This document shows positions 6,201 through 46,066 of a stretch of DNA of 64,000 bases, in pieces (the first letter of the stretch is position 1; every line of letters begins with the position of its first letter). The DNA comes from an uncultured Verrucomicrobiota bacterium (GTDB lineage Bacteria > Verrucomicrobiota > Kiritimatiellia > RFP12 > UBA1067). The notes beneath the pieces are model-generated. The model made no database searches and was not told the origin of the DNA. It saw only the letters and a list, made by a program, of their open reading frames with translations. The stretch spans positions 33,817 to 97,816 of the forward strand of contig CAMOFK010000002.1 in the NCBI GenBank assembly GCA_946613265.1. Reading direction: 5' to 3'. The position numbers were made by a program, and so were the translations under genes.

Positions 6201-6523
6201 GCAAGCGTCCGCAGTCCGTGACGCTGCTTTCCGGCGGCGAGAGGACGATGACCGCCGTGGCGCTGCTCTTTTCGATATTCTTGATCAAGCCGGCGCCGTT
6301 CTCGATGCTCGACGAACTCGACGCCGCGCTCGACGACGCGAACATCGGGCGCTTCGTCGAGCAGCTCAAGGAGTTTCTCGTCAAGTCGCAGTTCCTCATC
6401 ATCACGCACAACCAGCACACCATCGCCGGCGCCGATCTCGTATATGGCGTGAGCCAGCAGGAGAAGGGCGTAAGCCGCGTTATTTCGATGAAACTCTCCG
6501 ATCTGGGGGTAAAGGAGAAATGA
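3215..6523 (+). CDS. smc: Chromosome segregation protein SMC
   Basis: N-terminal Walker A FKSFADKTRLTFEPGLVAIVGPNGCGKSN. Long coiled-coil middle. C-terminal signature LSGGERTMTAVALLFSIF...LDELDAALD. 1102 aa. Confidence 0.95.
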   Translation: MYLKQLDILGFKSFADKTRLTFEPGLVAIVGPNGCGKSNVSDAIRWVLGEQKPTALRCSKLVDVVFNGTDTRKPLGLAEVSITFADCEKELGTDFHEVTVTRRVYRDGSGEYLINKKPSRLKDVQHLFMGTGIGTSSYSVMAQGQIDAILSSKPEDRRAVFEEAAGITKFKADRKDALRKIEQTEQNLLREADVLREMKRQIGSLQRQVGKAQKYKELRDELRGLDIYVSKQHIREFDSVLEENARNRREMEDAIAEASESVAAAEAAQQALHAEIHALEERLQTLAQQEASASGAYARAQEVIGVNAQRIAEYRSFAERDGREIADTRRQLEEVKMQMESLEQKTRLLSESLDAAKAALEEAEAAFKASQATIDEMRLRTQTSRTESVQCDRRAAEIRDEIARLEGAEREAIMRCERLNADKAQLSGAAEASRAALGEIREKAAAARALENAGEEAVLAVKTELDALREKIEHARDSLGEMQRSAAAKEAQLEMLKDEAKAKVALEAALQNECGAVRIVAQELSKGAVHDGDRLLDRLAPPQEEGAGEAVDPVLEDLLGDVVLVGGEGGVWRPKTGIASSSGRMSPITEAEMALSKLRTEIAEAKDVLANGAGRIKELAARHAEAEARLAEARRAAAQCEGEEAMARRDAEALDARLAKVAAEFAAAKKATADGAERRKVLAAELEETLARRDALMDAMAEMQETLRTLETESVTESQRLTERRIAASQMEQELSFVGRQGEGARDRRDELERQLEGRESGIRGYEDSIRRLTEESGDLLDSLDELKTRAESMRAMMDAERAKRSGMMERITAADREVAAKRSGLDQARDFRGKLEVQAAEATMRRQNIYDHLSDEYGLFADAVLHEPDPAWKGGVAPPVQELEATVARLQADIAALGPVNMVAIDECRELEERYSREKAQEADLIAAKAQILELINTLNTTSSEMFRKTFSQANENFQAMFTKLFGGGEARLVLLENAEDPLECGIDIIARPPGKRPQSVTLLSGGERTMTAVALLFSIFLIKPAPFSMLDELDAALDDANIGRFVEQLKEFLVKSQFLIITHNQHTIAGADLVYGVSQQEKGVSRVISMKLSDLGVKEK

Positions 6524-6530
6524 CGGGCGG

Positions 6531-8261
6531 ATGATGCAATGGATAAAGCAGCCGGGAAACACTCTCATAGCGCAATCGTCCATCGGCCATCTTGCAGGTA
6601 TTTATCCATTTCTTCTCACGGCGGACCGGGCGGCGGATGCAAAGGATGACAGCTTCAAAGAGAACGATGATGCAATGACAAGTGAAAATCCAGACAGAAA
6701 GAATTTCGGTCAATATTTCACGCCAAGAGATATTGCATCGTTTATGCTGGATCTTTCGCAAACATCGGCAAATGCAAAAGTTCTCGAACCATCATCTGGC
6801 GAAGGCGTGTTCTTGAATCTGCTGGAAGAACGCGGCTATGGCGACTTGCTTGCTTTCGAGATCGACCCTGGATTGGCGCGTGAGCGCAGATGTGTCAGAT
6901 GCGAAAGTTTTGTCAGCGCGGAATTGCCGCATGATTTCGATCTAGTCATCGGGAATCCGCCGTATATCCGTTGGAAAAATCTGACGCAAGAATTCAAGGA
7001 CGAACTGGCGGAAAATTTCCTGTGGCAAAAGCATTTCAACTCGTTGTGCGACTACGCCTGCATTTTCATGCTGAAAGGAGTGGAAGTCCTCAAGGAAGGA
7101 GGTGAACTGATATTCATCTGCCCCGAATATTGGATGAATACTACTCACGCGATTTCGCTCCGCAATTATTTGCTTGACCATGGATATTTTTCCGACATAT
7201 ACATTTTCAATGAAGCGCCTATTTTCAAAGGCGCAACGGTTTCGTCCGTCGTTTTCCGGTTCGTCAAAACCACGGCGAAGGAAAAACCGGCAATGCGCAT
7301 TGCAAAATTTGTCAAAAAAAGGAACATAGACAGCGACATATTGAAGAAACTTCAAAAACGAGAGCCTGTAAGCGATGTCGAGTATCTGGAACTCCCGCAA
7401 TTTGGAATTGGAGAACGCTGGGTGTTTGCCGCCAAGGAAGAAGCCGGCCGATTGAAGAGTTTGATGAAATCATGCCGGGCCGCAGATCAAAGCGCCTGTC
7501 TCGGCAACGATTATGCCATTGCCGCAACCGTCGGAGATGTATGCGATATTGGCAACGGAATGGTGAGCGGCTTGGACAAAGTCTTCCAGGTGCCCGGCGA
7601 CTTGCCTTTGACGAAAGACGAGCAGCACGATTCGATATGGGTTTACAAAGCAAAAGACCTGTCGCCTTATTTCGCGCTGCAGCCAACGCGATATGTCTAT
7701 GTCCCAGAAAACATAACCGAAGAATCAGAGTTTGAAAGATTGTATCCGCACTTCCACTCACTGATGAAACCATGTGCCGGACAACTTGACAGACGATACC
7801 AGTATAACAGCCGCATCCCGTATTGGCAATGGTGCTTCAAGCGAAACGAGAAGCTATTCTCTAGAAAAGAACCACGCATATTTGTGCCATGCAAAGAACG
7901 TATTTCGGCAAAATCATTTGTCCGTTTTGCTTTGGCAGACTCCGGCTTTTATCCCACGCAAGACGTCTCCGCCCTGTTCCGCAAGGAAAAGACCAAAGAA
8001 TCGATAGAATATATTCTTGCATATCTAAACCATCCACTTGTATTCAAATGGATAAAATACTATGGAATATCCAAGGGTAATATCGTGGAGTTTTCCGAAA
8101 AGCCGCTTTCCAGCATACCTTTCCGGAAAATAAATTGGGAGAATGAACGCGAAAGAGCGGCCCATGAAAGAATTACCGCATTAGTCAAAGAGTTGCTGGA
8201 CGAAAGAAAACCATCGCTGATTCGCGACATAAACGAACAATTCGAGGAGTTGCTGAAATGA
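6531..8261 (+). CDS. Gamma-class N6-adenine DNA methyltransferase (TaqI / Eco57I-like) with a C-terminal target-recognition region. A later start at 6675 (MTSENP...) is possible.
   Basis: Motif I VLEPSSGEGVFL and motif IV NPPYIRW in gamma order, with FTPRDIASFM upstream. The gene is about 43-45% GC against about 65% for its neighbours. Confidence 0.85.
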   Translation: MMQWIKQPGNTLIAQSSIGHLAGIYPFLLTADRAADAKDDSFKENDDAMTSENPDRKNFGQYFTPRDIASFMLDLSQTSANAKVLEPSSGEGVFLNLLEERGYGDLLAFEIDPGLARERRCVRCESFVSAELPHDFDLVIGNPPYIRWKNLTQEFKDELAENFLWQKHFNSLCDYACIFMLKGVEVLKEGGELIFICPEYWMNTTHAISLRNYLLDHGYFSDIYIFNEAPIFKGATVSSVVFRFVKTTAKEKPAMRIAKFVKKRNIDSDILKKLQKREPVSDVEYLELPQFGIGERWVFAAKEEAGRLKSLMKSCRAADQSACLGNDYAIAATVGDVCDIGNGMVSGLDKVFQVPGDLPLTKDEQHDSIWVYKAKDLSPYFALQPTRYVYVPENITEESEFERLYPHFHSLMKPCAGQLDRRYQYNSRIPYWQWCFKRNEKLFSRKEPRIFVPCKERISAKSFVRFALADSGFYPTQDVSALFRKEKTKESIEYILAYLNHPLVFKWIKYYGISKGNIVEFSEKPLSSIPFRKINWENERERAAHERITALVKELLDERKPSLIRDINEQFEELLK

Positions 8262-8551
8262 ACTCTTTTGTGGATTTCAATGCCATCGGCAATATTGTGC
8301 GCGGGCTTGCAGTCCCCAAACCCTTGTCTGGCACTTTGTCTGGACATGCAGCAGGCGAGCCGTTCGACAAAGCTGTTTACAACGAGCTCAAAAAGGTTTA
8401 TGGAGACAGGATTTTCAGGCAATACGAGTACCTCAACTTCAATTCTATGTCGCGGACTGCGACCAGACATTTTCAGAAGGCCGAGAAAGATGGGCGAGGG
8501 ATTATCTTCGGCATTTCGTCGCAGAGGCCGAAAGAAGAGTGTCATATATGA
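8258..8551 (+). CDS. Small 97-aa ORF translationally coupled to the methyltransferase (ATGA overlap). Possibly the remnant of a cognate restriction endonuclease.
   Basis: The start overlaps the methyltransferase stop. Same low GC. Weak PD...ELK-like stretch (EPFDKAVYNELKK). Too short for a functional type II REase. Ends in an AT-rich junction before ileS. Confidence 0.35.
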   Translation: MNSFVDFNAIGNIVRGLAVPKPLSGTLSGHAAGEPFDKAVYNELKKVYGDRIFRQYEYLNFNSMSRTATRHFQKAEKDGRGIIFGISSQRPKEECHI

Positions 8552-8631
8552 TTGAAACATTCGTAGAGCCGTTCAAGAAATACATCTGATATCTTCTGGC
8601 AATATTTCACAAAAACAACGAAAACGCGAAA

Positions 8632-11600
8632 ATGTACAAGGCAGTATCCAACAAGGTGGCGTTCCCGGAGATGGAGGAGGAGATCCTCGCATTCTGGGAG
8701 AAGGACGGGACGTTCAAGAAGTCGCTCGCGAAGAATGCGGGCAAGGAGCGCTATAAATTTTACGACGGCCCTCCTTTCGCGACGGGATTGCCGCACTACG
8801 GGCATCTTCTCGCCGGGACGATCAAGGATATCGTGCCGCGCTACCAGACGATGCGCGGCAAGTATGTCGAGCGCCGTTTCGGCTGGGACACCCACGGGTT
8901 GCCGATCGAAGCGCTCGCGCAAGAGGCGCTGGGCGTCTCCGGGGCGCACGAGATAAAGTCCATCGGCATCGACAAGTTCAACGAGCAATGCCGTTCGATG
9001 GTCTTGAAGTACGTCGGCGAATGGCGCAAGACTGTGACGAGGATGGGGCGCTGGGTCGATTTCGACAACGACTACAAGACGATGGATCCGTCGTTCATGG
9101 AGACTATCTGGTGGGTCTTCAAGCAGTTGTGGGAGCAGGGCAGGGTGTACAAGTCCCATCGCATCATGCCGTATTCCTGGAAGCTTTCGACGCCGCTTTC
9201 GAATTTCGAGGCCGGCTCGAACTACAAGGACGTGCAGGATCCTGCCGTGACGGTGCGGGCGAAGGCCGTGCCTTCTTCGATCTCCATCGATTGCCTCAGG
9301 GAGGAAGCGGCGCCCGTGTATCTGCTGATCTGGACGACGACGCCGTGGACGCTTCCGGAGAATCTGGCGATCTGCGCCGGCGCCGGCATCGACTATGTGG
9401 CCGTGCGCGATCTTACGGACGCAGGAAAGCCGGTGTACGTCATGGCGAAGGCGCGGCTGGATTCGATATTCAAGAAGCCCGGGCAGTGCGAGACCGTCGC
9501 GGAGTTCAAGGGGCTTTCCCTCAAGGGCTGGAAATACGAGCCGATCTTCCCGTACTTCGCCGCGAAGGAGGCGGAAGGCGCATTCACCGTCCTCAACGAC
9601 GACTACGTGACCACCGGTGACGGCACGGGCCTCGTGCATATCGCACCGGCCTATGGCGAGGACGACTTCCGCGTCTGCAAGGAAAACGGGATAACGGCAT
9701 TCGCCGATCCGCTCGACGAAGCCTGCGCGTTCACTTCGGCCGTCCCGGAATACGCCGGGCGCTTCTGCAAGGATTGCGACAAGGACATAATCAAGCGCCT
9801 GAAGGCCGAAGGCAAGCTCGTCCACCAGGCGACGATCGTGCACTCCTATCCGTTCTGCGACCGCACCGACACGCCGCTCATCTACCGCGCCATCGACGCC
9901 TGGTACGTGCGCGTCGAGGATTTGCACGACCGCCTCGCGGAGAACAACGCCACCGTGCACTGGACACCGGACTACGTGGGCGACAAGCGCTTCGGGAACT
10001 GGCTGAAGGACGCGAGAGACTGGAACATCTCGCGCAACCGCTTCTGGGGCAGCTGCATTCCCGTTTGGGTGAATGTCGATGATCCTCGGGATATGATATG
10101 CGTGGGCAGCGTCAAGGAGCTGGAGGAGCTTTCCGGCGTCAAAGTCGCCGATCTGCACAAGCATTTCGTGGACAAGATCGTCATCGTGCGCGACGGCAAG
10201 ACGTACCGGCGCACGCCCGAAGTCCTGGACTGCTGGTTTGAATCCGGCTCCATGCCATACGCCCAGCAGCACTACATGGGCGAGGGCGATACTGCGGAAT
10301 TCTTCCCGGCGGACTTCATCGCGGAAGGCCTCGACCAGACGCGCGGGTGGTTCTACACGCTCATGCTGCTCGGCACGATGCTCTTCGGCAAGTCGCCGTA
10401 CAGGAACGTCGTCGTCAACGGGCTGGTGCTCGCCGAGGACGGCAAGAAGATGTCCAAGCGCCTGAAGAACTATCCCGATCCCACGAAGATGCTGGACACG
10501 TACGGCGCGGACGCCATCCGCCTCTACATGATCTACTCTCCGGTGGTGCGCGCGGAGAATCTCAAGTTCTCCGAAAGCGGCGTGAAGCAGCTGATGCGCG
10601 ATTTGCTCATACCGTGGTGGAACGCCTACTCGTTCTTCGTGACGTACGCGAATGTCGATGGCTTCAACGAGCCGGAGATTGCGCCGCCCGGCTCCGCGAA
10701 CGTCCTGGACAAGTGGATCGTTTCTTCGATGGAGACGCTGATAGCCGATGTGACGGCGGCGATGGACGGCTACGATCTCCAGCGCTCCGTGCGGCCGTTC
10801 GTGAAATTCGTCGAAGACCTCACCAACTGGTACATCAGGCGCTCGCGCCGTCGCTTCTGGAAATCGACGAACGACGGCGACAAGCTTTCCGCGTACCGCA
10901 CGCTGCGCTACGTGCTCGTGCAGCTCGCGAAAGTCGCAGCGCCGTTCACGCCGTTCATCGCCGAAGAGATTTTCCGGAATCTGCGCGGCGCGGGCGATCC
11001 CGGCAGCGTGCATCTCTGCGACTTCCCGGAGGCGAACGCGGCCGCGCGCGACCTCGCGCTGGAGCGCCGCATGGCCGCCGTGCAGACCGTTGTCGAACTC
11101 GGCAGGCGCCTCAGATCCGACAACGATCTCAAGGTAAGGCAGCCGCTGGCGGCGATCCGTTTCTCCGGCGCTGATGTCGAAGGCCTGGAGGAGCTGATCG
11201 CCGACGAGCTGAACGTCAAGGCCGTCGAATACGTCGCCGACGAAAAGGCGCTTTGCAACGTCTCCTTCAAGGCGAACTTCAAGACGCTCGGCAAGAAGTG
11301 TGGAGCGAAGATGAAGGCGGTGGCGGCGGCGATCGCTTCTTCCGGCGCCGAAGGGCTGGGCGTGAAGACGGTTGTTCTCGAAGGCGTCGAAATCGAGCCG
11401 GAGGATGTGATAGTCACGCGCTCGCCGAAGGCCGGCCTCGTCGTCGCTTCGGAAGGCGCGGTCGTCGTGGCGCTCGAGACGGCGCTGACGCCCGCGCTCG
11501 TCGCGGAAGGGCTGGCGCGCGAATTCGTGAGCCACGTGCAGTCGATGCGCAAGGAGGCGGATTTCGAAGTCGTGCAGCGCATCGCGCTTCGCGTGGAGTG

Positions 11601-13294: not shown

Positions 13295-14722
13295 GTGAAA
13301 TATTTCGTGTTTATCGTCGCTGCGCTCGGCGTTCCGCCTTTCGCATTCGTGCTGTCGCAGAACAAGCGATGGATACGCTATGCGTTCGTCGGCATAATCG
13401 TCGCGATGTGCATGTACATCAACACGTCGATAAACTTCTTCTCGCACGAACACTACCGCGGAAGCGCGCGCGGCATGGAGGTGAGCCTCGCGCATCTGAT
13501 GGCATGGGCGGTGATAGGCGCGCTGATGATTTCCGGGAAATTCAAGAAGTGGGTTCCGGAGACGGGGTACGTGCTGTACATAATCTATTTCCTGCTCTGC
13601 CTGCCCAGCATGTCATCGGCGGAGGACAAGCTGATCGCGTGGTTCGAAGTCTGGAAGATGATCATGCTCTATTTCTTCTATGTGGCGGTGTACAGCTACA
13701 TGGACGCGACGGAGGATATAAAGACGGTTGTGAAGGGCCTGGCGATTTTCGCGATCGTTAACATGCTCACCGTCGTGAAGGACCATCTGAGCGGGATATA
13801 CCAGCCTCACGGGGTGTTCCCGCACCAGAACTGCATGGCCGTCGCGATGCATCTTTTCGGCTCCATGTTCTTCGCCGCGTATCTGGCGAACGGCGTGCGC
13901 AAGCCTTTCGGGAAGCTCTGCTTCGCGGCGTTCGCGATGGCGGCGGCGGCGACGGCGCGCTCGTATTCGCGAATGGCGCTGGCGCTCATGCCGGTCGGCT
14001 ACGGGATAGCGTTTGTGTTCTGCGTCTTCGTAGGCAAGACGAAGCGCTGGCTGTCGCGAATCGCGCCTATCGCCGTAATGGGCATGCTGGCGTTCGCCGC
14101 GATACTGCCGAGGATAATCGAGCGCTTCGTGAACGCCCCGGAAGCTTCGGGGAACACGCGCGTGGAGCTTGCGCTTTGCGCCTGGGAGATGATAAAGGAC
14201 GAGCCGTGGCGCGGCGTGGGGATAAACAACTGGGGCATCAAGATCAACCCGCCGTACGAATACGCCGAACTCGCCGGGCGCATCACGAATCGCGGCGAAG
14301 ATTTCCGCGACGGCATTGTCGAGACGGTGTATCTGCTCGTGGGCGCGGAGTGCGGGCTGCCTGCGCTCGCGGCGATGCTGGCGTGGTATCTATGGCATCT
14401 CTACAGCTGCATCCGCCTCGTGCCGCGCCTGAAAGGCACGAAGTGGATGTTCATTCCGGCGGGGCTGGCCGGCGGTTTGACCATCGCCTATCTGCAAAGC
14501 TGCATGGAGTGGGTGTTCCGCCAGCAGCTGAATCTGATTTGCCTGATGTTCTTCTTCGCGCTCATCAGCTACTTGAACAAGAATTGGCGGCGTCTGCGCA
14601 TCGAGGAGGGCTTGCCGGTCGAGCCGGAGAAGCTTCGCCTCGTGCGCCATATGAGGCCGCTGCAGAGATTGATCGACCGCGCGCACGGAAGGGCGCGGCG
14701 CATGCGGCGCGCCGGCGGCTAG
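13295..14722 (+). CDS. O-antigen ligase / polymerase-like (Wzy_C family) integral membrane protein
   Basis: About 10 TM segments. GVGINNWG and VETVYLLVGAECGLPAL motifs resemble the Wzy_C periplasmic loop region. Sits next to a glycosyltransferase and a flippase. Confidence 0.55.
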   Translation: MKYFVFIVAALGVPPFAFVLSQNKRWIRYAFVGIIVAMCMYINTSINFFSHEHYRGSARGMEVSLAHLMAWAVIGALMISGKFKKWVPETGYVLYIIYFLLCLPSMSSAEDKLIAWFEVWKMIMLYFFYVAVYSYMDATEDIKTVVKGLAIFAIVNMLTVVKDHLSGIYQPHGVFPHQNCMAVAMHLFGSMFFAAYLANGVRKPFGKLCFAAFAMAAAATARSYSRMALALMPVGYGIAFVFCVFVGKTKRWLSRIAPIAVMGMLAFAAILPRIIERFVNAPEASGNTRVELALCAWEMIKDEPWRGVGINNWGIKINPPYEYAELAGRITNRGEDFRDGIVETVYLLVGAECGLPALAAMLAWYLWHLYSCIRLVPRLKGTKWMFIPAGLAGGLTIAYLQSCMEWVFRQQLNLICLMFFFALISYLNKNWRRLRIEEGLPVEPEKLRLVRHMRPLQRLIDRAHGRARRMRRAGG

Positions 14723-17418: not shown

Positions 17419-18510
17419 ATGGCGGAATCTGCTGGAGAGAAGACGGAGATGCCGACGCCCAAGAAGCTGCGCGACGCGCGGCAGAAGGGGCAGGTCTGCT
17501 CTTCCAAAGACATCGTCTCCACAGCCATACTCATCGTTCTCTTCTGCGTGCTCGGCTGGATGGGGGTCGCGCTGATGGACGATTCCGGCAATCTCCTGCG
17601 GCTTGTGGGCGCGTCCGTCGAAAAGAACGACATGTTCGGGCTGGGCGAGACGATGAAGCTTACGGCGTTCACGATATGCAAGCATTCCTTCATATTCGTG
17701 ATCGTCGCGGCGGTCATCGGCGTCGTGGGGAACGTGGCGCAGATAGGCTTCCTTTTCACTTTCGAGCCGATCGTCCCGAAGCTGGAAAAGCTCAACCCGG
17801 TAGAAGGCGCGAAGAAAATCTTCTCTATGAAGAATCTTTTCGAGTTCCTGAAAAACGTCGTCAAGGTCACTTTCCTCGGATACCTCGTATATAAGATCAT
17901 ATTGGCCAGCGTCCCGGAGCTGCTTACGATGTGCTACGGCACGCTGGACGACATCTTCCCCTGCCTGCGGCTGATGCTGAAACGCATGGCCATCTATACG
18001 GCCTTCGGGTATATCGTGATAGCGATTGTCGATCGCATCTTCCAGGGCAAGAATTTCACCAAGCAGATGATGATGACGAAGGACGAAGTCAAGCGCGAAT
18101 ACAAGGAGATGGAAGGCTCCGCGGAAGTCAAGCAGGCGCAGCGCCAGTTCCGCGACGAACTCCTCAACGGCCCAGACCCCGCCGCCGCTGCGAAGAAATC
18201 TGATGTCGTCGTCACCAACCCGACGCATCTGGCGGTCGGCATACGCTACGATGTCGAGGAAGCGCCGCTGCCGCGCATATGCGCGGCGGGCGCCGACGAT
18301 GTCGCGAAAATCATCCGCGAGACGGCTCTCGCGGAAGGCATACCGGTAATGGAGGACGTGCCGCTTGCGCGCGCCCTCTACGCCGGCGGCAAGGTGGAGG
18401 AATTCGTCCCCGAGGCGCTTCTCGAGCCTGTCGCCGAAGTCCTCAAGTGGGCGAAAGCCATCAAGGAAGCAAAGAAGGAAGAAGATGAATTGGACAGCGT
18501 GACGATCTGA
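17419..18510 (+). CDS. flhB: FlhB/YscU/EscU-family type III secretion export-apparatus switch protein
   Basis: N-terminal EKTEMPTPKKLRDARQKGQV. Four TM helices. KLNPVEGAKKIF motif. NPTH autocleavage site (VVVTNPTHLAVGIRY) and C-terminal PLARALY. Confidence 0.9.
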   Translation: MAESAGEKTEMPTPKKLRDARQKGQVCSSKDIVSTAILIVLFCVLGWMGVALMDDSGNLLRLVGASVEKNDMFGLGETMKLTAFTICKHSFIFVIVAAVIGVVGNVAQIGFLFTFEPIVPKLEKLNPVEGAKKIFSMKNLFEFLKNVVKVTFLGYLVYKIILASVPELLTMCYGTLDDIFPCLRLMLKRMAIYTAFGYIVIAIVDRIFQGKNFTKQMMMTKDEVKREYKEMEGSAEVKQAQRQFRDELLNGPDPAAAAKKSDVVVTNPTHLAVGIRYDVEEAPLPRICAAGADDVAKIIRETALAEGIPVMEDVPLARALYAGGKVEEFVPEALLEPVAEVLKWAKAIKEAKKEEDELDSVTI

Positions 18511-21359: not shown

Positions 21360-21668
21360 TTAGCCGAGAATGGCGTCCTTGAGAGCCTTGCACGCGACGA
21401 TCTTGACGACCTTCTTGGCCTTGATCTTGATCTGCTCGCCAGTCGCAGGATTGCGGCCCATGCGAGCAGGACGCTGGATTTTCTTCACCTTGCCGATACC
21501 GGGAAGCATGAAGCCCTTCTCTTCCTGCTGCGCACCCTTGATTGCAAGATCTACGAGCCTTTCGTAGACGGCAACCGCCTGCTTCTTGGTGATCTCGGCG
21601 GACTCCGCAAGCGCGGCCATGATTCCGCTCTTGGTTGTGGGGACGACTTCCTTCTTAGCCTTTGCCAT
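21360..21668 (-). CDS. hup: HU/IHF-family DNA-binding protein. Start set at MAKAKK with an AAGGA RBS; the track ORF extends spuriously upstream.
   Basis: …RNPATGEQIKIKAKKVVKIVACKALKD is the HU arm signature (R-N-P-x-T-G). 103 aa. Confidence 0.9.
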   Translation of the reverse strand: MAKAKKEVVPTTKSGIMAALAESAEITKKQAVAVYERLVDLAIKGAQQEEKGFMLPGIGKVKKIQRPARMGRNPATGEQIKIKAKKVVKIVACKALKDAILG

Positions 21669-21722
21669 TGTCTGATCCTTATTTATTGACTCGTGGAAAA
21701 CCATTTTCCATTCGTCTGGCGC

Positions 21723-21731
21723 ATAATATAC
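21723..21731 (-). promoter_or_regulatory. Extended -10 (TGGTATATT) for hup
   Basis: Reverse complement of aatatacca lies about 55 nt upstream of the hup ATG. Confidence 0.35.
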
Positions 21732-21931
21732 CATATTTTTCTGCTTCCGCAAAGGGGGTAAAATCGTTTTTTGGCTTTTTTTTCGTCTTTGCCGCCTCCA
21801 AAACCTTCCAACCCCGCCTCAGGGCCAGGATTAAATTGCTTTCTCCCCCCGAAGAAATGCCGCGCAAGCTCGCGCGCCTCCCCTGGTGTGCCGTGCCAAG
21901 CACCGCTATCACCATTGCCTATACCCTTTGC

Positions 21932-22098
21932 GGACCAAGTCGCCTTCATTGGCGACTAGAGTCGCCTTCATGGGCGACTAGAGTCGCTTTCATTGGCGAC
22001 TAGAGTCGCTTTCATTGGCGACTGGAGTCGCTTTCATTGGCGACAGGAGTCGCTTTCACTGGCGACATGAGTCGCTTTTATTGGCGACTGGAGTCGCC
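21932..22098. repeat. Tandem array of about 7.5 copies of a 22-bp unit GGCGACTAGAGTCGCYTTCATT. Each unit carries a 7-bp inverted repeat (GGCGACT-ag-AGTCGCC).
   Basis: Units read off directly at 21951, 21973, 21995, 22017, 22039, 22061 and 22083, with a degenerate copy at 21932. Intergenic, upstream of hup and downstream of uvrD. Confidence 0.9.
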
Positions 22099-22286: not shown

Positions 22287-24320
22287 TTAATGGCGCCAGG
22301 TAGTCTTGTAGATCGGCTTGGAGCGCGCGTACGGGCTGCCTCCGGAGGAGTAGGAAGGGCGGTATTGGTTGAAGGCGGGCGGCTGGTAGCCGGAATCTAC
22401 GGAGCGCACGTCGAGAAGCTCGCGGGGGATGTCGCGAAGGAACGGGGAGACCGTCACAGGGAATTCTCCGCCTTCCGGGCTGCGGCGCACGCGAGGCGCC
22501 AGCATCATCAGGCGATCCTTCGCGCGCGTCACGGCGACGTAGAAGAGGCGGCGTTCTTCGTCCAGCCTGTTTTCTTCCTGCGCCTTGGCGCTCGGGAACA
22601 TGCCATCGACGACCCACGGAATGATGACGGCCGGCCATTCCATGCCCTTTGCCTGATGCACAGTGGAGAGCGTGATGCGATCGGCGGACGGATCGTTCTT
22701 CCGAAGATCGAGATTGGTGAGAAGGGCGATGTTGGCGAGATATTCGTCGAGCGGCGTCTGGTCGTCTGCGAGATCGCTGGCAAGTTCGCGGATATCGAGG
22801 AGGCGCTCTTGCGCTTCTTCGCCTTCCCAAGTCCGCTGGAGATAGGAAGCGTAGAACGCTTCGAGGAAATCCATGACGATCATGCCGCGCTCGCCCGCCG
22901 CCAAATGTTCGTCGATTTTCGCCATGGCGGCGGCGATGGCTGGCCAAAGAGGGCGCGCCTTTGCGCCGAGCATGCCGCCGAGTCCGGAGCGAGCTTCGCT
23001 TTTGCGGGGATCGAATTCGCAGCCGAGCTTCTTCCAGAATTTCTTCGCGCCCGTCTCGCCTACGCCCGGAAGAAGCGTGATGAAGCGCAAGAAGGAAAGT
23101 TCGCCGTGCGGCGCGACGACGAGCCGCAGATACGCGAGGATGTCTTTGACATGCTCCTTTTCGTAGAAGCCCGTGCCGCTTGTCAGGCGATACGGGATCG
23201 CAGATTGATTTACGGCTTTCTCCACGTCGATCGATTGGTAGTGCGAGCGGTACAGCACGGCGATGTCGCGGCATGCGTAGCCGGATGCGCGCAATTCGCG
23301 TATGGCCGATACGATTTCCTGCGCCTGCGCCTTGCCGTTATAGACGCGCACGGCCTGCGGAAGGCGGCCTTGCGGGCGGATGGCGCGAAGTTGTTTGGCA
23401 AACTGCCCGGGCGCGTTCTTCATGATCGCGTTCGCGGCGTCCAGAACCTGCGGCACGCTGCGGTAGTTGCGCTCCAGCTTGACGATCTTGCAATCCTTCC
23501 AGCGTTCAGGGAAGCGCATTATATTCTCGATTTTGGCGCCGCGCCAAGTGTAGATGCACTGGAAATCGTCGCCGACGGCCATTATGTTGCGGTGCCCGGC
23601 GGCTATCAAATCCGTGAACTCCGCCTGAATGCCGTTCGTATCCTGGTATTCATCCACGAGGACATGGAGAAACTTCTCCTGGAGCATTCCGCGGATGTCC
23701 GCCTTCTCTTTCAGAAGCTTCAGGCCGTTCACGATCAGATCGTCGAAATCCATCGCGCCTATCTCGCGTTTGCGGGTTGCATAGGCGTTGGCGACGGCTA
23801 CGATCTCCTCCGGAGTGAACCCCGCGGCTTTCGTCTGCCAGCGCGAGGCTATCGCCGCGACGGGAAGCTGTTCGTTGGCGGCTTCCGAAATCATGCGCAA
23901 GACGATTTCCTTCTTCGGGAAGTCTTTTGGGTTTTCCACGGTGGTCTTGACGATTTCCGCGATCAGTTTCTTCTGGTCTTCTTCGTCGAGAATCTGGAAA
24001 TCGTTTCTGTAGCCGAGCGCGCCGCCCCAGCGCCGCAGAAAACGCGCGCAAATCGAGTGGAAAGTGCCTGCCCATATCGCCGCGGCGTCAGGGCCGACGA
24101 CGGCGCGTGCGCGATCCAGCATTTCTTTGGCCGCGCGGTTCGTGAAGGTGAGCAAGAGGATTCTGTCCGGTTCGACGCCGCGTTCGACGAGGCAGGCGAC
24201 GCGATGCACCAGCGTGCGCGTCTTGCCAGTGCCGGCGGCGGCCAGCACGAGCAGCGGGCCGCCTTCCGCCGTCGCGGCCGCGTATTGTTCGGGATTGAGA
24301 AGCTTTGAGAAGTCGGTCAT
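22287..24320 (-). CDS. uvrD: ATP-dependent DNA helicase UvrD/PcrA family
   Basis: Motif I LLVLAAAGTGKTRTL. UvrD motifs throughout. 677 aa. Confidence 0.95.
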   Translation of the reverse strand: MTDFSKLLNPEQYAAATAEGGPLLVLAAAGTGKTRTLVHRVACLVERGVEPDRILLLTFTNRAAKEMLDRARAVVGPDAAAIWAGTFHSICARFLRRWGGALGYRNDFQILDEEDQKKLIAEIVKTTVENPKDFPKKEIVLRMISEAANEQLPVAAIASRWQTKAAGFTPEEIVAVANAYATRKREIGAMDFDDLIVNGLKLLKEKADIRGMLQEKFLHVLVDEYQDTNGIQAEFTDLIAAGHRNIMAVGDDFQCIYTWRGAKIENIMRFPERWKDCKIVKLERNYRSVPQVLDAANAIMKNAPGQFAKQLRAIRPQGRLPQAVRVYNGKAQAQEIVSAIRELRASGYACRDIAVLYRSHYQSIDVEKAVNQSAIPYRLTSGTGFYEKEHVKDILAYLRLVVAPHGELSFLRFITLLPGVGETGAKKFWKKLGCEFDPRKSEARSGLGGMLGAKARPLWPAIAAAMAKIDEHLAAGERGMIVMDFLEAFYASYLQRTWEGEEAQERLLDIRELASDLADDQTPLDEYLANIALLTNLDLRKNDPSADRITLSTVHQAKGMEWPAVIIPWVVDGMFPSAKAQEENRLDEERRLFYVAVTRAKDRLMMLAPRVRRSPEGGEFPVTVSPFLRDIPRELLDVRSVDSGYQPPAFNQYRPSYSSGGSPYARSKPIYKTTWRH

Positions 24321-29124: not shown

Positions 29125-29916
29125 TCACTTCGCGAGATCTTCAATGACGATCTGCGCGATCCTGCGGCCGCTCTTCAGCATTCCGCCGAAGATCGGCCCC
29201 ATGCGGAAGCCGCCCTGCGTATTGTTCGCGGCCATGCCGCTCGCGTACAGGCCGGGGTAAAGGCGCTTGGTGTTCGCGACGGTGGTGCGCTCGCCGTCCG
29301 CCATCCACATCGGGCGCTCGCCGAGAATTCCGCCGGTCGGCGAATCGATTTTGACGCCCGCCTTGTGCACCGCCTTGTTGACGATTTCGCTGGGGTGCCC
29401 GGTGCCGTCGATGAGCGCGCGCGAAGTGACGACGATGGGATCGACGTGCATTTCAAGCCTTGCCACAGGGTTCCAGTTTATCACTACTCCGGAGACTACG
29501 CCATCGTGCATCACGATATCTTCCACCTTGACGGTGTTGAAGATGACGGCGCCCGCCTTGCGCGCGCCAAAGATCAGCCCGGAAGCCATCTCGACCGAAT
29601 CCACGGTGTGGTACTGCCCGTCGTACTGGCGCGTGGAAATCCCGAATTCATGGAGAATTTCCGCCGCATCGTTCTGCACGGTCACTTCGTTGAAGAGCAT
29701 TCCGCCGCCCCACGTGCCGCCGCCGGGCGCAAGCTTCGATTCATACACGGCGACCTTCAACCCGGCCTTGGCAAGATCGTGCGCGGCGACAAGCCCGCTC
29801 GGCCCCGCTCCGACGATCGCCACATCGACCGCGAGATTGTTCTCCAGCTTCTCGAAAAAGCGGCGTATGATCGCGCCGCTGATAGTCTCTTCCATTACGG
29901 AAGTCTTGGTGTCCAT
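29125..29916 (-). CDS. thi4: Thi4-family thiazole synthase (archaeal/eukaryotic type)
   Basis: [29 protein letters not shown]…[14 protein letters not shown]-binding pattern of the Thi4/THI1 family. 263 aa. Confidence 0.85.
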
Positions 29917-29929
29917 TTTTTGCTTCTTT

Positions 29930-30016
29930 CTTCTCCCTACGCCGGCATTACCCGGTTCAGGTTATTCGGGTATTTTCTCAGCAGTGCCGGCACCTCGCCG
30001 GCACAGCACCCCGTCG
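29930..30016 (-). promoter_or_regulatory. TPP riboswitch (THI element) in the thi4-thiE leader
   Basis: Minus-strand RNA reads …ACGGGGUGCUGUGCCGGCGAGGUGCCGGCACUGCUGAGAAAAUACCCGAAUAACCUGAACCGGGUAAUGCCGGCGUAGGGAGAAG… This has the GGGGUGC, CUGAGA, ACCUGA…GG…UAAUGCC…GCGUAGGGA core. The SD (GGGAG) lies in the 3' P1 strand just before the thi4 ATG. Confidence 0.8.
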
Positions 30017-30022
30017 CGATAC

Positions 30023-30031
30023 ATTATACCA
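30023..30031 (-). promoter_or_regulatory. Extended -10 TGGTATAAT driving the riboswitch-thi4-thiE transcript
   Basis: Reverse complement of attatacca, immediately upstream of the riboswitch 5' end. Confidence 0.45.
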
Positions 30032-30154: not shown

Positions 30155-30232
<78 letters not shown>

Positions 30233-30566: not shown

Positions 30567-32966
30567 GTGCACATGCAAACGGAATATCGCCACATGAAAA
30601 GGGGAATAAAGCGTTGCGTCTTGCTCGCCGCCGCTATATTGGCGGCGTGCGGAGGCGCGAGCCAAGACAATGGCGCCGGTGCGGGACGCGACGCGCGGAA
30701 AGCGCCGAAGGCCGCATGGCGCCTGCGCTACGCCGAACCAGCGCAATGGAGCCAGAAGGGGTGGTGCGAAGCGTCGCTGCCGCTTGGCAACGGCCTCTTC
30801 GGCGTCTCCGAGTTTGGTGGCACGGACGTCGAGCGGTTGCAATTGACGGAGCCGGCGTTTCAGACGCGCCAGCTTTTGTACGGACGCGAGGACTGGCCTG
30901 AAGGGAATCTCACGGACGCGGCGGATGTCACGATAGATTTCGGGCACAAGGACGCCGGTGGCTACATTCGCGAACTCGACCTCGAAACGGGCATCGCCTC
31001 TGTCAGATACTCGACGGGCGGGATCGACCATGAGCGCGAATACTTCATATCCTATCCCGACAAGGCCGGCGTGATGCGTTTTTCGGCTTCGCAGGAAGGA
31101 GCGCTCTCGTTCACGCTCGGTGTCGCGGTGCCGTTCACGGACGAAAAATGGCCGTTAAACCGTACCGGGAAAGTCGAGTCGGCCGGCGACGAGATTCGTT
31201 TGACGGCGGAGAGCGGCGCATACCACGTCAAACTCGCAGGCTGTTTCAAGGTTTTGACGGACGGCAAAATCTCCAAAGCCGGGGAGAACTCTCTGCGGGT
31301 TGAAGGAGCAAGCGAAGCGACGGTCGTGTTTTCTCTCGCCACCAACTACCGCCTTTGCCCGGAGATGTTCACGGCGATGCACGGCGAGCGCGACAGAACC
31401 GCCGATTTCGGCCTCGATCCTGCGCCGGAAGCGGCGCGGCGCGTGGCGGCGGCGGCGCGGCGCGGCTACGCCGCACTGAAAGCGCGCCACCTCGACGACA
31501 TTCGCCGGCTGGTCGGCAGGAGCGGAATAGACATCGCCTTCGAGGCCGGGGATATGGCGCTGACGACGCCGCAACTGCGCTGCCGCGGAGCCGCCAGCAA
31601 TTATCTCGCCATGCTTCAATGGCGGCTGGGGAAGTATCTGCTCGCTTCGTCGTCGCGTCCCGGCGGGCTGCCGGGATCGTTGCAGGGGATATGGGCCGGG
31701 CCTGTTTCGAATACGGCGTGGGGTTCGGGCTATTGGCACAATATAAATGTGCAAATGCTCTACTGGCCGGCGTTCATATGCAATATGTCCGAATGTTTCG
31801 AGCCTTACGCCGCCTATTGCGAAGCGTTCCGCCCGGCGACGCGCGGGGCGGCGAGGGCGTATCTCGAAAGAGAAAATCCGGCCGCGCTGGACGAGCCGCT
31901 GGCGGAGGATTTCTGGAGCGTGGGCACGGCGGCGTGGCCGTACGAGCTGCAGATGACGCCGCACCGCGAAATTCCGAACGGGCACTCCGGGCCTGGCACC
32001 GGCGGCCTTACGACCGCGATGTTTACAGACTGGTACGACTTCACGCAAGATCGCGCAATCCTCGAAAAGCGCGTCTGGCCCGCTCTGCACGGCATGGCGG
32101 ATTTCCTCACGCGCTGCGTCGCGCATACGAACGGGCTGTGGCTGGCGACTTTCTCGGCTTCTCCCGAACAGCTCCACAAGAAAAAGCTGCGCAAGACGCT
32201 CGGGACGTATTGCCACACGCTAGGGTGCGCTTTCGATCAGCAGATGATCGAAGCGAACAGCGCCGCGCTCGTGCGTTTCGCCGGGATTCTGGGGCGGTCG
32301 AACGATCCGGTCGTCAAGCGCTGCCGCGCGCAGCTCGGGAAGTACGACAGCGTCATGATCGGCGGCTCCGGGCAGATAAAGGAGTTCCGCGAGGAGGACA
32401 AGTACGGCGAAATAGGCGATCCGGAGCATCGCCACGTTTCCCATCTCTGCGGCCTATACCCGGCGGCGATAATAACCCGCGCCACTCCGGAATGGCTCAT
32501 GGCGGCATCCGCCACTCTCGATATGCGCGGCAAAAAGACCAATGGCTGGGCCACGGCGCACCGCGCCTGCTGTCGCGCGCGCATCGGCGAAGGCGACAAG
32601 GCTCTTGCTTCCTTCGACACCTTCTTCAAGGACTGTCTGACAGACACCCTGTGGGCGCGGCTGGCGGGAACGCAGGAAATCGATGCGAATCTCGGCTATA
32701 CGGCCGCGGTGTCCGAAATGCTCGTCCAGAGCCATGAAACCGACGAAAAGGAGAATTTCATCGTCGATCTACTGCCGGCGCTTCCGTCGAAGTGGGCGTC
32801 CGGCGGCTCTTTCAAGGGACTTTGCGTTCGCGGCGGCTGGACGGTCGATTGCTCATGGAAGGATGGCCGGCCGGTCGAGGTGGCGCTCCATCCAGGCCCG
32901 CATGCCGCCCCCAAACCCCTTGTCCGCTTCGCCGGCGCTCCTCTGCGGGCGCTTGAATCCCGCTAA
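30567..32966 (+). CDS. Glycoside hydrolase, GH95-like (alpha-L-fucosidase family), probable lipoprotein
   Basis: N-terminus [16 protein letters not shown] is a lipobox. Internal [14 protein letters not shown] resembles the GH95 catalytic-region signature. 799 aa. Coordinates from the ORF track. Confidence 0.65.
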
Positions 32967-33075: not shown

Positions 33076-33215
33076 TGTCGCCTCGTCTCGCGACTAGGGT
33101 CGCCTCGTCTCGCGACTGGAGTCGCCTTTGCAAGCGACTAGGGTCGCCTCGTCTCGCGACTAGGGTCGCCTTTGCTAGCGACTAGGGTCGCCTTTGCTGG
33201 CGACTAGAGTCGCTT
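33076..33215. repeat. Second array (about 6.5 copies) of the 22-bp GCGACTAGGGTCGCC-core tandem repeat, same family and orientation as the 21.9-kb array.
   Basis: Units at 33090, 33112, 33134, 33156, 33178 and 33200. Spacers are TCGTCTC or TTTGCTR. Intergenic, after the GH95 gene. Confidence 0.85.
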
Positions 33216-33810
33216 GGGGAGGCGACAAGCGCCGCTCCGGCTCCCGAACCCGCAGACCGCGGCTACGCATCCCGCGCACCGTGCAAAGACCTGCCGCGGG
33301 CTGACACGCCCGCTCCCAAGGGGAAGTGGCGCAGAAAAGGCGACAAAGTTGCTTTATTCTGGCAGATATAGTGCATAGAAGGGGAGGAGTTTTTGCTAGT
33401 TTCGTACCATTGGGAAGCTGGGATAAGAGAAGGTGAAAAAATCTTCGGGGCGTTCCGTTGCCCATTGACGGGGGCAAAAAGAATATGATAAAATATGCCG
33501 CAACTTGGGTATAGTAGGTATGGTTGGTTATATTGAATATGTCGCAACAGACGAAATAACGTCTCTTACGAGGCGTTTCCAACCTTGCCCCCCACTCCCC
33601 CCTCGAACAATACGCACATATGCGCGGTGTTTTGCGTCGCGAGCCATTTGCCGGCGGTAGCCACGACTTCAAAATGACACGTGACGCGTTCATACCGAGC
33701 AGAGTTTCGCAACGCCCGTCCAGGCGCGTATTCCTTTCTTCGCCCTGGCATCGTCGTCGCGAGTGCGGACGGCGCAGGAACTATTTCCAATTACAAGAGG
33801 CATGAACATT

Positions 33811-40803: not shown

Positions 40804-40805
40804 GG

Positions 40806-40870
40806 GTTGAAAGGTTGAAAAGTGCGTAGCGACGACGCCTCGTCGTCGGAATAAAAGTTGAAAGGTTGAG
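40806..40870 (+). repeat. Junction motif GTTGAAAGGTTGAAAAG, then an 8-bp-stem hairpin (CGACGACG-cct-CGTCGTCG), then a second GTTGAAAGGTTGAG copy
   Basis: Read directly from the sequence. The same word recurs at 41829, 44425 and 46039. Confidence 0.8.
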
Positions 40871-44429: not shown

Positions 44430-44460
44430 AAGGTTGAAAAGTTTAAAGGTTGAAGGGTTG
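44425..44460 (+). repeat. Junction motif GTTGAAAGGTTGAAAAGTTTAAAGGTTGAAGGGTTG
   Basis: Direct read. Lies immediately after the GLUG-protein stop. Confidence 0.8.
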
Positions 44461-44665
44461 ATGGCGAAGAACGGCAACAGCAGCCTCGACCGGGCCAAGA
44501 AGCAGAAGGGCGCGTACATGACAATCCTGAGAGTACGAATTATTTCTGCAATACAGACCAGTCGTTCACGCTAGACAGAGATGGAACAGTCCGCGTCTGC
44601 AAGTTTGGCTACGCATGTGAATGCTGCACAAACCGGACATGCCATGTAGAACGGGAGGTGCAACG

Positions 44666-46038: not shown

Positions 46039-46066
46039 GGTTGAAAAGCTGAAAGGTTGAAAATTC
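46039..46066 (+). repeat. Junction motif GGTTGAAAAGCTGAAAGGTTGAAAATTC, abutting the giant gene's ATG
   Basis: Direct read. Confidence 0.8.

Follow-up and report, generated by a model that had tools for sequence, protein, structure and literature searches.

R6K has seven 22-bp iterons, and parC of pSK41 has 20-bp tandem repeats. At the level of RNA, CsrB and RsmZ titrate CsrA and RsmA, and high-affinity CsrA sites possess a loop of 5-6 nt of the form ANGGAN. REPs are 20-40 nt imperfect palindromes tagged with GTAG or CGTC at one end; inverted pairs dominate, and head-to-tail dimers are absent or rare (PMC3733652). In the Beggiatoaceae, sets of TAACTGA direct repeats are abundant in intergenic DNA, where a post-transcriptional role is suspected and lateral spread is considered possible (PMC4679880). 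GGA in the loop of a hairpin is the recognition motif of CsrA, and its sponge RNAs contain many such motifs (PMC13443453, PMC6546359). In addition, repeat-mimicking RNAs are known from phages (PMC10651486).

The window, i.e., the whole 64-kb stretch of DNA that was analysed, contains two arrays of a short tandem repeat, each accompanied by a decayed terminal unit:

21938..22097, + strand: array 1 (Tandem Repeats Finder (TRF), pattern search against shuffles, covariance model R1, sequence)
21930..21943, + strand: decayed unit GCGGACCAAGTCGC terminating array 1 on the side of hup (read from the sequence)
33077..33213, + strand: array 2, of the same family and orientation as array 1 (TRF, R1, Pfam for the neighbouring gene)
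33222..33235, + strand: decayed terminal unit GCGACAAGCGCCGC after array 2 (read from the sequence)

TRF assigns array 1 a period of 22, 7.3 copies with 92% matches, no indels and a score of 243. Its seven full GCGAC-N4-GTCGC cores start at 21952, 21974, 21996, 22018, 22040, 22062 and 22084 and are thus spaced by exactly 22 bp. On the + strand, a unit consists of GCGAC, a centre (TAGA three times, TGGA twice, AGGA and ATGA once each), GTCGC and the 8-nt, T-rich spacer TTTCATTG, which is A-rich on the sense strand of the neighbouring genes uvrD and hup. At the left edge, the right arm AGTCGCC (21938-21944) is preceded by a decayed left arm (21930-21937); this decayed unit is kept in all strains, and its R1 score of 9.1 bits lies at noise level. 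The tandem 22-bp repeat described in an earlier, sequence-only reading is therefore real and comprises seven complete units and a decayed one at exact 22-bp spacing, whereas the near-perfect 16-bp palindrome ascribed to every copy is found in full (GGCGACT..AGTCGCC) in the first and last of the seven units only. The remaining five end in GTCGCT, with G..T instead of G..C at the outermost position, and two of these five (centres AGGA and ATGA) also lack the inner T..A position; the invariant portion of the unit is confined to the arms of 5+5 nt. The suggestion that the sites are phased on one face of the helix is not supported, since sites at 22 bp per unit drift by about 34 degrees per unit. 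In agreement with the sequence-only reading, array 1 does not look like a canonical terminator. The stem has 5-6 bp, the spacer of the + strand is rich in T, and a simple terminator scan is passed by two units, both of them on that strand. A CRISPR could be dismissed, as had been claimed, because the 8-nt spacers are near-identical and no cas genes were detected among the window ORFs scanned with Pfam or in the gene tables of related loci. Minimum-energy folds of the whole intergenic region were uninformative, as any arm can pair with any other.

The pattern GCGACTNGAGTCGC, with up to two mismatches, gave 26 strand-matches against 6.7 expected, a number reached by none of 100 shuffles, and all 26 fall in array 1 or array 2 (33077-33213). 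R1, a covariance model of the 22-bp unit that was run with filters off, detected 13 significant units over the 64-kb window, all of them on the + strand, seven in array 1 (25-32 bits on the + strand, at most 15.7 on the - strand) and six in array 2 (22-33 bits on the + strand); the best remaining matches outside both arrays in the window score 14 bits at an E-value of about 0.2, which is noise. Likewise, R1 with filters off revealed no solitary unit in the 64-kb window and 65 kb of array-bearing loci. The high-copy scatter of single units that would have marked the repeat as a dispersed selfish element is thus not seen, and a DNA uptake sequence was rejected on the same ground, namely the lack of dispersed single copies. 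Array 2 has a period of 22 and 6.2 copies according to TRF and begins 110 nt past the stop codon of a GH95 gene (30567-32966, + strand; Pfam). Its six units read GCGAC-[TAGG four times, TGGA, TAGA]-GTCGC, and their spacers alternate between CTCGTCTC and CTTTGCWN.

The exact HU protein encoded next to array 1 is found on nine public contigs, and the same intergenic region is present in six loci from independent assemblies. Array 1 is therefore not an assembly artefact, a possibility that the sequence-only reading had raised. Among the four assemblies that span it whole, two have seven units and two have eight; two further contigs end inside array 1. Contig breaks inside arrays were observed at L004, L006 and L077, the latter being an independent assembly that breaks within array 2. 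As contigs break in the arrays and array 1 (160 bp) is probably about as long as one sequencing read, exact copy numbers call for long reads. Between the window and the eight-unit variant L002, the flanks differ by 1.5-2.3%, and the array differs by 9.3% and one 22-bp indel, which corresponds to a divergence about five times faster than that of the flanks. Every change is located in the 4-nt centre or the 8-nt spacer, and none affects the arms GCGAC and GTCGC. Arrays of close strains thus gain, lose and reshuffle whole units. The proposal that the array is bound in multiple copies by a dimeric protein is supported in part: the invariant arms amid variable centres and spacers argue for a sequence-specific factor, but a symmetric dimer fits poorly.

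Array 1 has uvrD, hup and a gene for a Na/Pi cotransporter (Pfam) as neighbours:

22287..24320, - strand: uvrD-type helicase gene (Pfam UvrD-helicase, E=3.8e-76; same call in related contigs)
21360..21668, - strand: hup, encoding a 102-aa HU-family DNA-binding protein (Pfam Bac_DNA_binding, translation)
21721..21753, - strand: predicted hup promoter, inferred from its conservation in relatives without the array

The gap between uvrD and hup measures 618 bp, and array 1 starts 190 nt past the uvrD stop codon, reading the - strand. The predicted hup promoter follows roughly 200-380 bp downstream and neighbours array 1 without being a part of it; the position of the array between the uvrD stop codon and the hup promoter, as given in the sequence-only reading, is correct. 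The promoter was missed by a simple consensus scan and was placed by comparison with the hup upstream regions of three other Kiritimatiellae (L087, L090, L093); a -35 element TTTGCG/TTGCGG is predicted at about 21747-21753 and an extended -10 element TGGTATATT at 21725-21733. The names carried by HU homologues assign the source organism of the window to the Kiritimatiellae as well. In these three species, long contigs encode HU homologues that are 82-93% identical; hup has different neighbours there, uvrD-hup synteny is missing, and an upstream region of 320-340 bp contains a matching promoter and no array. R1 found no unit in about 75 kb of loci from these species. The suggestion of a regulator array for hup does not survive this comparison, since three relatives keep the promoter without the array and the same unit is arrayed at unrelated loci, and a hup operator was ruled out on the same grounds. 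At the level of sequence, the comparison shows no conserved link between array 1 and hup. A LexA/SOS box, with its 5-N4-5 format and with uvrD and cinA as neighbours of arrays, was rejected as well: the arrays are found at the 3' ends of genes, and the promoters of the window are free of units.

Further arrays were found by translating known arrays and searching a protein database for spurious ORFs (matches P0121-P0127). At least four other intergenic loci, a small sample biased towards arrays without stop codons because it was obtained via spurious ORFs, carry arrays of the array 1 unit:

L096/L097: 8 units, flanked by cinA and a GH20 gene in convergent orientation
L099/L101: 6-8 units, flanked by a tRNA operon and rnf in divergent orientation
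L100: 6 units, between co-directional genes
L102: array of the same family (R1 and regex searches)
L103: 7 diverged units, between co-directional genes

The sample that yielded L096/L097 also contains a 100%-identical copy of the window region. About seven further spurious ORFs, which bear the signature ATGVA / RLESP / DWSR and have different flanks, emerged from an exhaustive HMMER search. Array 1 is hence one locus of a family of head-to-tail hairpin repeats in some Kiritimatiellae, which appears to be undescribed so far and is present in several copies per chromosome. Since it is one of a family scattered through intergenic DNA, array 1 is not a dedicated control site of hup. The genes next to the arrays are co-directional (array 1, array 2, L100 and L103), convergent (L096) or divergent (L099/L101). 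The arrays occur in either orientation, so that the strand carrying GGA in the unit centre (the GGA strand) can be sense or antisense to the neighbouring genes, and a simple scan detected no sigma-70-type promoter adjoining any of them.

Over 62 units, the consensus is GCGAC-Y-G-G-A-GTCGC-Y-T-T-N-N-Y-T-S, i.e., a 14-nt near-palindrome followed by an 8-nt T/C-rich spacer. The counts are T47/C10/A4 - G51 - G61 - A57 for the centre and Y-T(56)-T(49)-N-N-Y-T(51)-S for the spacer. As loops, TGGA occurs 36 times, CGGA 10 times, TAGA five times, TAGG four times and AGGA three times; YGGA or AGGA is present in 50 of the 62 units, and GGA is found in three of the seven loops of array 1 and one of the six loops of array 2. 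Although the spacers vary from locus to locus, T is common to them at positions 16, 17 and 21. Homology between loci thus extends over all 22 bp of the unit, which in turn implies that arrays or founder units have moved. The unit is strand-asymmetric, since the spacers of the GGA strand are T/C-rich and A-poor (T 48%, C 29%, G 17%, A 6%; 77% pyrimidine). As RNA, single units form a stem of 5-6 bp with -5.8 to -7.9 kcal/mol. A sixth pair beside the stem is possible as G-U in 21 units on the GGA strand against two on the opposite strand; these G-U units come from two lineages only, and strands rich in G and U fold better anyway.

In the diverged array at L103, centres and spacers have strongly changed and the loops are mostly YGGC, while none of the seven arm pairs has lost its perfect match, and R1 detects six units at distances of exactly 22 bp, without indels. 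A neutral minisatellite would not keep perfect arms amid diverged centres and spacers; the pattern thus indicates in-place selection on the arms and perhaps also on the spacing, as judged by sequence conservation.

The L096-type arrays are embedded in a conserved non-coding element of 400-520 nt, for which three different gene contexts were observed. Two of these have the boundary of the element (...CTGCGACGCTTGGGTT) directly at the stop codon of the neighbouring gene, and the variety of contexts hints at mobility. The consensus of the 5' flank folds with -21 kcal/mol on the GGA strand against -6 kcal/mol on the other strand. The 3' flank folds equally well on both strands and has a conserved AAAGGAGGTG in a predicted loop, and, on the GGA strand, a small conserved hairpin with a T-run follows the array at a distance of about 75 nt. 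Taken together, the G-U pairs and the flank folds give a thin hint of a preference for the GGA strand. A small ORF after a conserved AAGGAGG within the element was discarded for want of a conserved reading frame in the alignment. The window lacks the conserved flanks of the L096-type element.

The core also recurs in MAGs binned to other phyla. One genome per species was scanned with a loose pattern, which yielded many chance or unrelated two-unit matches among those listed. The listed matches include genuine 22-bp arrays with AGGA or CGGA loops in MAGs labelled Terrimicrobiaceae, Anaerolineaceae, Promineifilum and Kineosporiaceae, i.e., in MAGs binned to Verrucomicrobiota, Chloroflexota and Actinomycetota; these loops were not demanded by the pattern. 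Also among the listed matches is an Alloprevotella MAG that carries a 22-bp array with TGCA or TACT loops. A stricter scan of metagenomes gave nine loci, mostly with NGGA loops. Several of the contigs are short and terminate within the array, which makes their binning uncertain. At L079, the units are spaced by 15, 19 and 22 bp. Chloroflexi MAGs (L046, L054) possess GTAG-tagged inverted palindromes with GCGAC-TTCA-GTCGC, and in Acidobacteriota MAGs, mostly of the Vicinamibacterales, TGCGACA-N2-TGTCGCA occurs twice, 22 bp apart, embedded in predicted TTGACA/-10 promoters. These pairs appear to sit in promoters and to serve as DNA operators, a reading that depends on the inferred promoter elements. 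No neighbouring gene is conserved across the cross-phylum arrays: a subtilase gene occurs twice, cas6 once, and the others are unrelated. The two subtilase neighbours (L051 and L070) apparently represent one locus. The cas6 case is L081, which belongs to the related family A and whose array ends 7 nt from the cas6 stop codon; it is a single case.

What, then, are these arrays? Our preferred explanation, which we put forward tentatively and as possible rather than probable, is that they represent a REP-like hairpin family which is organised in head-to-tail arrays, grows by slippage and has a core that serves as the site of a factor acting on single strands. The arrays would expand and shrink through replication slippage or unequal exchange between units, and founding units would have reached new loci via some mobilisation step. 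The arms, the GG(A) centre and the first bases of the spacer may constitute the recognition site of a trans-acting, sequence-specific factor, which would act on the folded, GGA-bearing single strand, be it RNA or ssDNA. When folded, a unit is predicted to form a G+C hairpin of 5-6 bp with a YGGA tetraloop, followed by a U/T-rich linker. Effects on neighbouring genes would be generic, in that a row of stem-loops within untranslated RNA would weakly terminate transcription or hinder 3' exonucleases; any influence of array 1 on uvrD and hup would be of this kind and would not amount to specific control of hup. Several points argue against the REP-like explanation: known REPs are single or form inverted pairs, no RAYT or other candidate mobilising enzyme appeared in the fetched loci, no sigma-70-type promoter adjoins the arrays, the strand evidence is thin, and the sample of loci is small and biased. 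Furthermore, perfect arms would not be retained in the decayed L103 array if the element were purely selfish; this speaks for a function at the level of the host, as the rival explanations propose.

One of these holds that transcripts of the GGA strand, made on their own or derived from 3'-UTRs, act as RNA decoys or sponges and titrate a GGA-binding RNA regulator or a hairpin-binding protein. We consider this unlikely. An array would provide six to eight short hairpins, and 50 of 62 units present GGA in the 4-nt loop; AGGA and CGGA loops recur in independent 22-bp arrays of MAGs binned to other phyla, although the search pattern did not require them. The L096-type element, with its conserved AAAGGAGGTG in a loop, its hairpin and T-run after the array and a 5' flank that folds far better on the GGA strand, points in the same direction. 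CsrA is common in Planctomycetota, and the several array copies per genome resemble the Rsm sRNAs, which are multi-copy. However, GGA is present in only 3/7 loops of array 1 and 1/6 of array 2, L103 has mostly YGGC, and the loop of 4 nt is shorter than the 5-6 nt of known high-affinity CsrA sites. No promoter adjoins the arrays, and Rfam gave no match even at permissive thresholds. A csrA gene was not detected in the fetched loci, a tiny sample covering a few percent of a genome that was searched with an HMM built from three CsrA sequences, and no literature linking CsrA with Kiritimatiellae was found. In addition, a sponge would not need the strict 22-nt period that is kept even in the diverged array. 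The more specific version, in which the arrays are multivalent RNA decoys titrating a conserved hairpin- or GGA-binding protein that is CsrA-like or a Cas6-type RNase, is quite unlikely in our view. The participation of Cas6 has also been considered in the form of a spacer-less CRISPR-like array, whose hairpins would be cut or bound by a Cas6-type endoribonuclease to give a regulatory or decoy RNA; the position of the L081 array (related family A) 7 nt from the cas6 stop codon would fit, as would the repeat-mimicking RNAs of phages, but the former is one case in another organism, no cas gene was detected near the Kiritimatiellae arrays among 29 window ORFs scanned with Pfam and in the gene tables of the related loci, and unique spacers are missing, which makes this reading barely plausible.

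A different kind of function is assumed if the units act as double-stranded DNA operators, with the near-palindromes bound by a dimeric protein and six to eight sites two helical turns apart forming a cooperative filament, for instance as a nucleoid-organising, centromere-like or titration site. Sites of helix-turn-helix dimers classically take the form of a 5-N4-5 palindrome whose arms do not vary, most units have a symmetry extended by T6/A9, the diverged L103 array has retained its 22-bp period free of indels, and related palindrome pairs 22 bp apart occur in the predicted Acidobacteriota promoters. However, conservation is asymmetric, with G7/G8 in the centre and, on one and the same strand, Y-T-S as the 5' flank and Y-T-T as the 3' flank; a symmetric dimer fits poorly, because it would not impose an asymmetric centre (YGGA) together with T/C-rich flanks on one strand. 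Arrays are also found between convergent genes and far from promoters (array 1 roughly 200-380 bp from that of hup), hup occurs in relatives without the array, no par or rep gene is adjacent, plasmid and phage matches are missing, spacing is not fixed in L079 (15, 19 and 22 bp), and successive units are rotated by about 34 degrees relative to each other. We therefore regard the operator reading as improbable. Control of hup or uvrD in cis, or a local iteron or parS site of the plasmid type, is suggested by the location between uvrD and hup and by the 22-bp direct repeats, which resemble iteron spacing. This reading is very improbable: three related species have the hup promoter without the array, the unit is shared by unrelated loci, searches of plasmids, phages and viral contigs gave no match, and the flanking genes are ordinary chromosomal ones.

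Whichever explanation applies, the arrays belong to abundant, barely studied polysaccharide degraders, as the Kiritimatiellae are, and no published description of repeats or small RNAs of this group was found. In-place selection on the core, variation in unit number between co-occurring strains and the recurrence of the core in MAGs binned to other phyla would together point to a sequence-specific nucleic-acid-binding factor that is possibly widespread. If the decoy reading were true, the arrays would be the first known sponge-RNA family of the PVC group and have counterparts in Verrucomicrobiota, Chloroflexota and Actinomycetota, the gain and loss of units would tune titration capacity between strains, and post-transcriptional regulation in the PVC group would become directly testable. 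If the DNA reading were true, they would represent a new chromosomal multi-site binding array. In practical terms, the arrays break short-read assemblies, yield spurious ORFs in protein databases (P0121-P0127 and others) and could act as strain markers in the manner of variable-number tandem repeats.

Like iterons and the ParR-parC system, the arrays comprise five to eight direct repeats at intervals of about two helical turns, which are suited to cooperative binding, and array 1 falls within the range of iteron-type repeats (17-22 bp direct repeats, phasing of about 22 bp). In contrast to these systems, they are chromosomal, are present at multiple loci and consist of units that are each palindromic, and neither a rep or par gene nor an AT-rich unwinding element or DnaA boxes were noted next to them. 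A Pfam search of 29 large ORFs of the window revealed no Par domains. A comparison with 72,556 plasmids and 50,697 phages gave no similarity to the array, and IMG/VR contains no three-unit match. The iteron or parS identity proposed in the sequence-only reading is contradicted by these results and by the occurrence of several arrays per chromosome, with the unit present at six or more unrelated loci, and both candidates were rejected. CRISPRs resemble the arrays in having palindromic repeats at regular spacing but differ in that their repeats of ~23-55 bp are separated by unique spacers of comparable length, as opposed to a 14-nt core with 8-nt near-identical spacers and a period of 22 bp; Cas domains were found neither in 29 large window ORFs (Pfam) nor in the gene tables of related loci. 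CsrB and RsmX/Y/Z are similar in that short GGA-loop hairpins are reiterated, several loci exist per genome and one array element is followed by a terminator-like hairpin. The arrays are distinguished from them by perfect periodicity, 4-nt loops, the loss of GGA in many units of the window and the lack of an adjoining promoter and of an Rfam match, neither at gathering score nor at E-values of up to 10. The TAACTGA repeats of Beggiatoaceae are likewise lineage-specific, short tandem direct repeats at many intergenic sites, although their unit has 7 nt, is not palindromic and is unrelated in sequence (PMC4679880).

Compared with REPs, the core of the arrays is shorter (14-16 nt as opposed to 20-40 nt) and lacks the GTAG or CGTC tag: on the non-GGA strand, the stem is preceded by GAAA, GAAG, CAAG or AAAG, and GTAG occurs once, in L100. 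Furthermore, the units are arranged head-to-tail only, with an exact 22-bp period and without solitary copies, and no candidate for a RAYT or another mobilising enzyme was present in the gene tables of the fetched loci. Nevertheless, the arrays share with REPs, BIMEs and REPINs the nature of short, G+C-rich extragenic palindromes, which form a multi-copy family and intergenic clusters often located past gene 3' ends, and whose stems are conserved in sequence, implying a recogniser that acts in trans. The GCGAC/GTCGC arms are even common to the GTAG-tagged palindromes of Chloroflexi MAGs. Among known kinds of elements, REPs are thus the nearest to the arrays described here.

A second array of the 22-bp hairpin-repeat family is located downstream of a GH95 glycosidase gene, and a separate set of tandem 8-bp repeats, (GGTTGAAA)n, is found directly 5' of the start codons of three successive plus-strand ORFs. 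These and further features of the window are as follows.

17419-18510: gene for an FlhB/YscU-family export gate
29916-30023, minus strand: TPP riboswitch, upstream of the thi4/thiamine-biosynthesis operon
30155-30231, plus strand: tRNA-Pro(TGG) gene, adjoining the riboswitch
33077-33213: array 2 of the 22-bp family
40805-40821, 44424-44464 and 46039-46063, plus strand: (GGTTGAAA)n repeats of the ORFs starting at about 40883, 44462 and 46067
46067-54220: ORF of 2717 amino acids
46153-46186, reverse complement: inverted copy of (GGTTGAAA)n, just within the 2717-aa ORF
56506-56979: gene for a CesT-family chaperone

The spacer types of array 2 alternate, resulting in a super-period of 44/66 bp, and the contig of the independent assembly L077 ends within this array. 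Arrays of the 22-bp family have also been called as genes, which gave rise to spurious "proteins" with motifs recurring every 22 amino acids (ATGVA..DWSR..RLESP; database entries P0121-P0127, P0130, P0131, P0135, P0145, P0152 and P0159), one of which, P0123, also spans three tRNA genes. In the metagenome locus L081, a perfect array of 5.3 copies of (CGTCGTTGCGCGACAGGAGTCG) occupies positions 7-123 at the end of the contig, and a cas6 gene (130-1038) has its stop codon 7 nt from the array; L078, a locus from the same metagenome, terminates in the same array.

The 8-bp repeat GGTTGAAA was matched eight times, compared to 0.06 expected matches, and could serve as a translation-initiation or regulatory motif of this gene cluster. 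Taken together, the export gate, the CesT-family chaperone and the 2717-aa ORF suggest that this Kiritimatiellae genome may encode a type III secretion-like system. Between the SMC gene and ileS (6500-9000), the G+C content drops to 0.47-0.54 compared to around 0.61 elsewhere, and a GC3 screen of this region revealed no convincing ORF.

A long hairpin, GGCCGCAAT-N4-ATTGCGGCC, with the conserved sequence CAACTGCGACGCTTGGGTT flanking it, was read as a bidirectional terminator and occurs in three further array-bearing loci (L096, 9947-9997; L099, 4340-4386; L102, 80-150 and 715-764). In L102, it is present on either side of the array-bearing element; the hairpin is possibly a REP-like element in its own right, or may instead mark the termini of a mobile unit. 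Next to a DDE transposase gene, the related Kiritimatiellae contig L094 carries a 41-bp tandem repeat (14172-14443; 6.6 copies, 96% identical).

Promoters of a conserved layout were found in MAGs of Vicinamibacterales and other Acidobacteriota (among the matches listed, L010, L013, L022, L036, L044, L045, L050, L053, L055, L062 and others): TTGACA overlaps the palindrome ATGCGACA-N2-TGTCGCAT and is followed by the -10 hexamer, with a second palindrome copy 22 bp on. The paired palindromes are probably the operator pair of a putative repressor. In L087, a contig of a related Kiritimatiellae species, the palindrome CCGGAATATCCGG is repeated in three 18-bp units in tandem and found once more on its own (13790-13870), directly 5' of the promoter TTGACG / TGGTACAAT. 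This set resembles a conventional operator array, in contrast to the 22-bp family.
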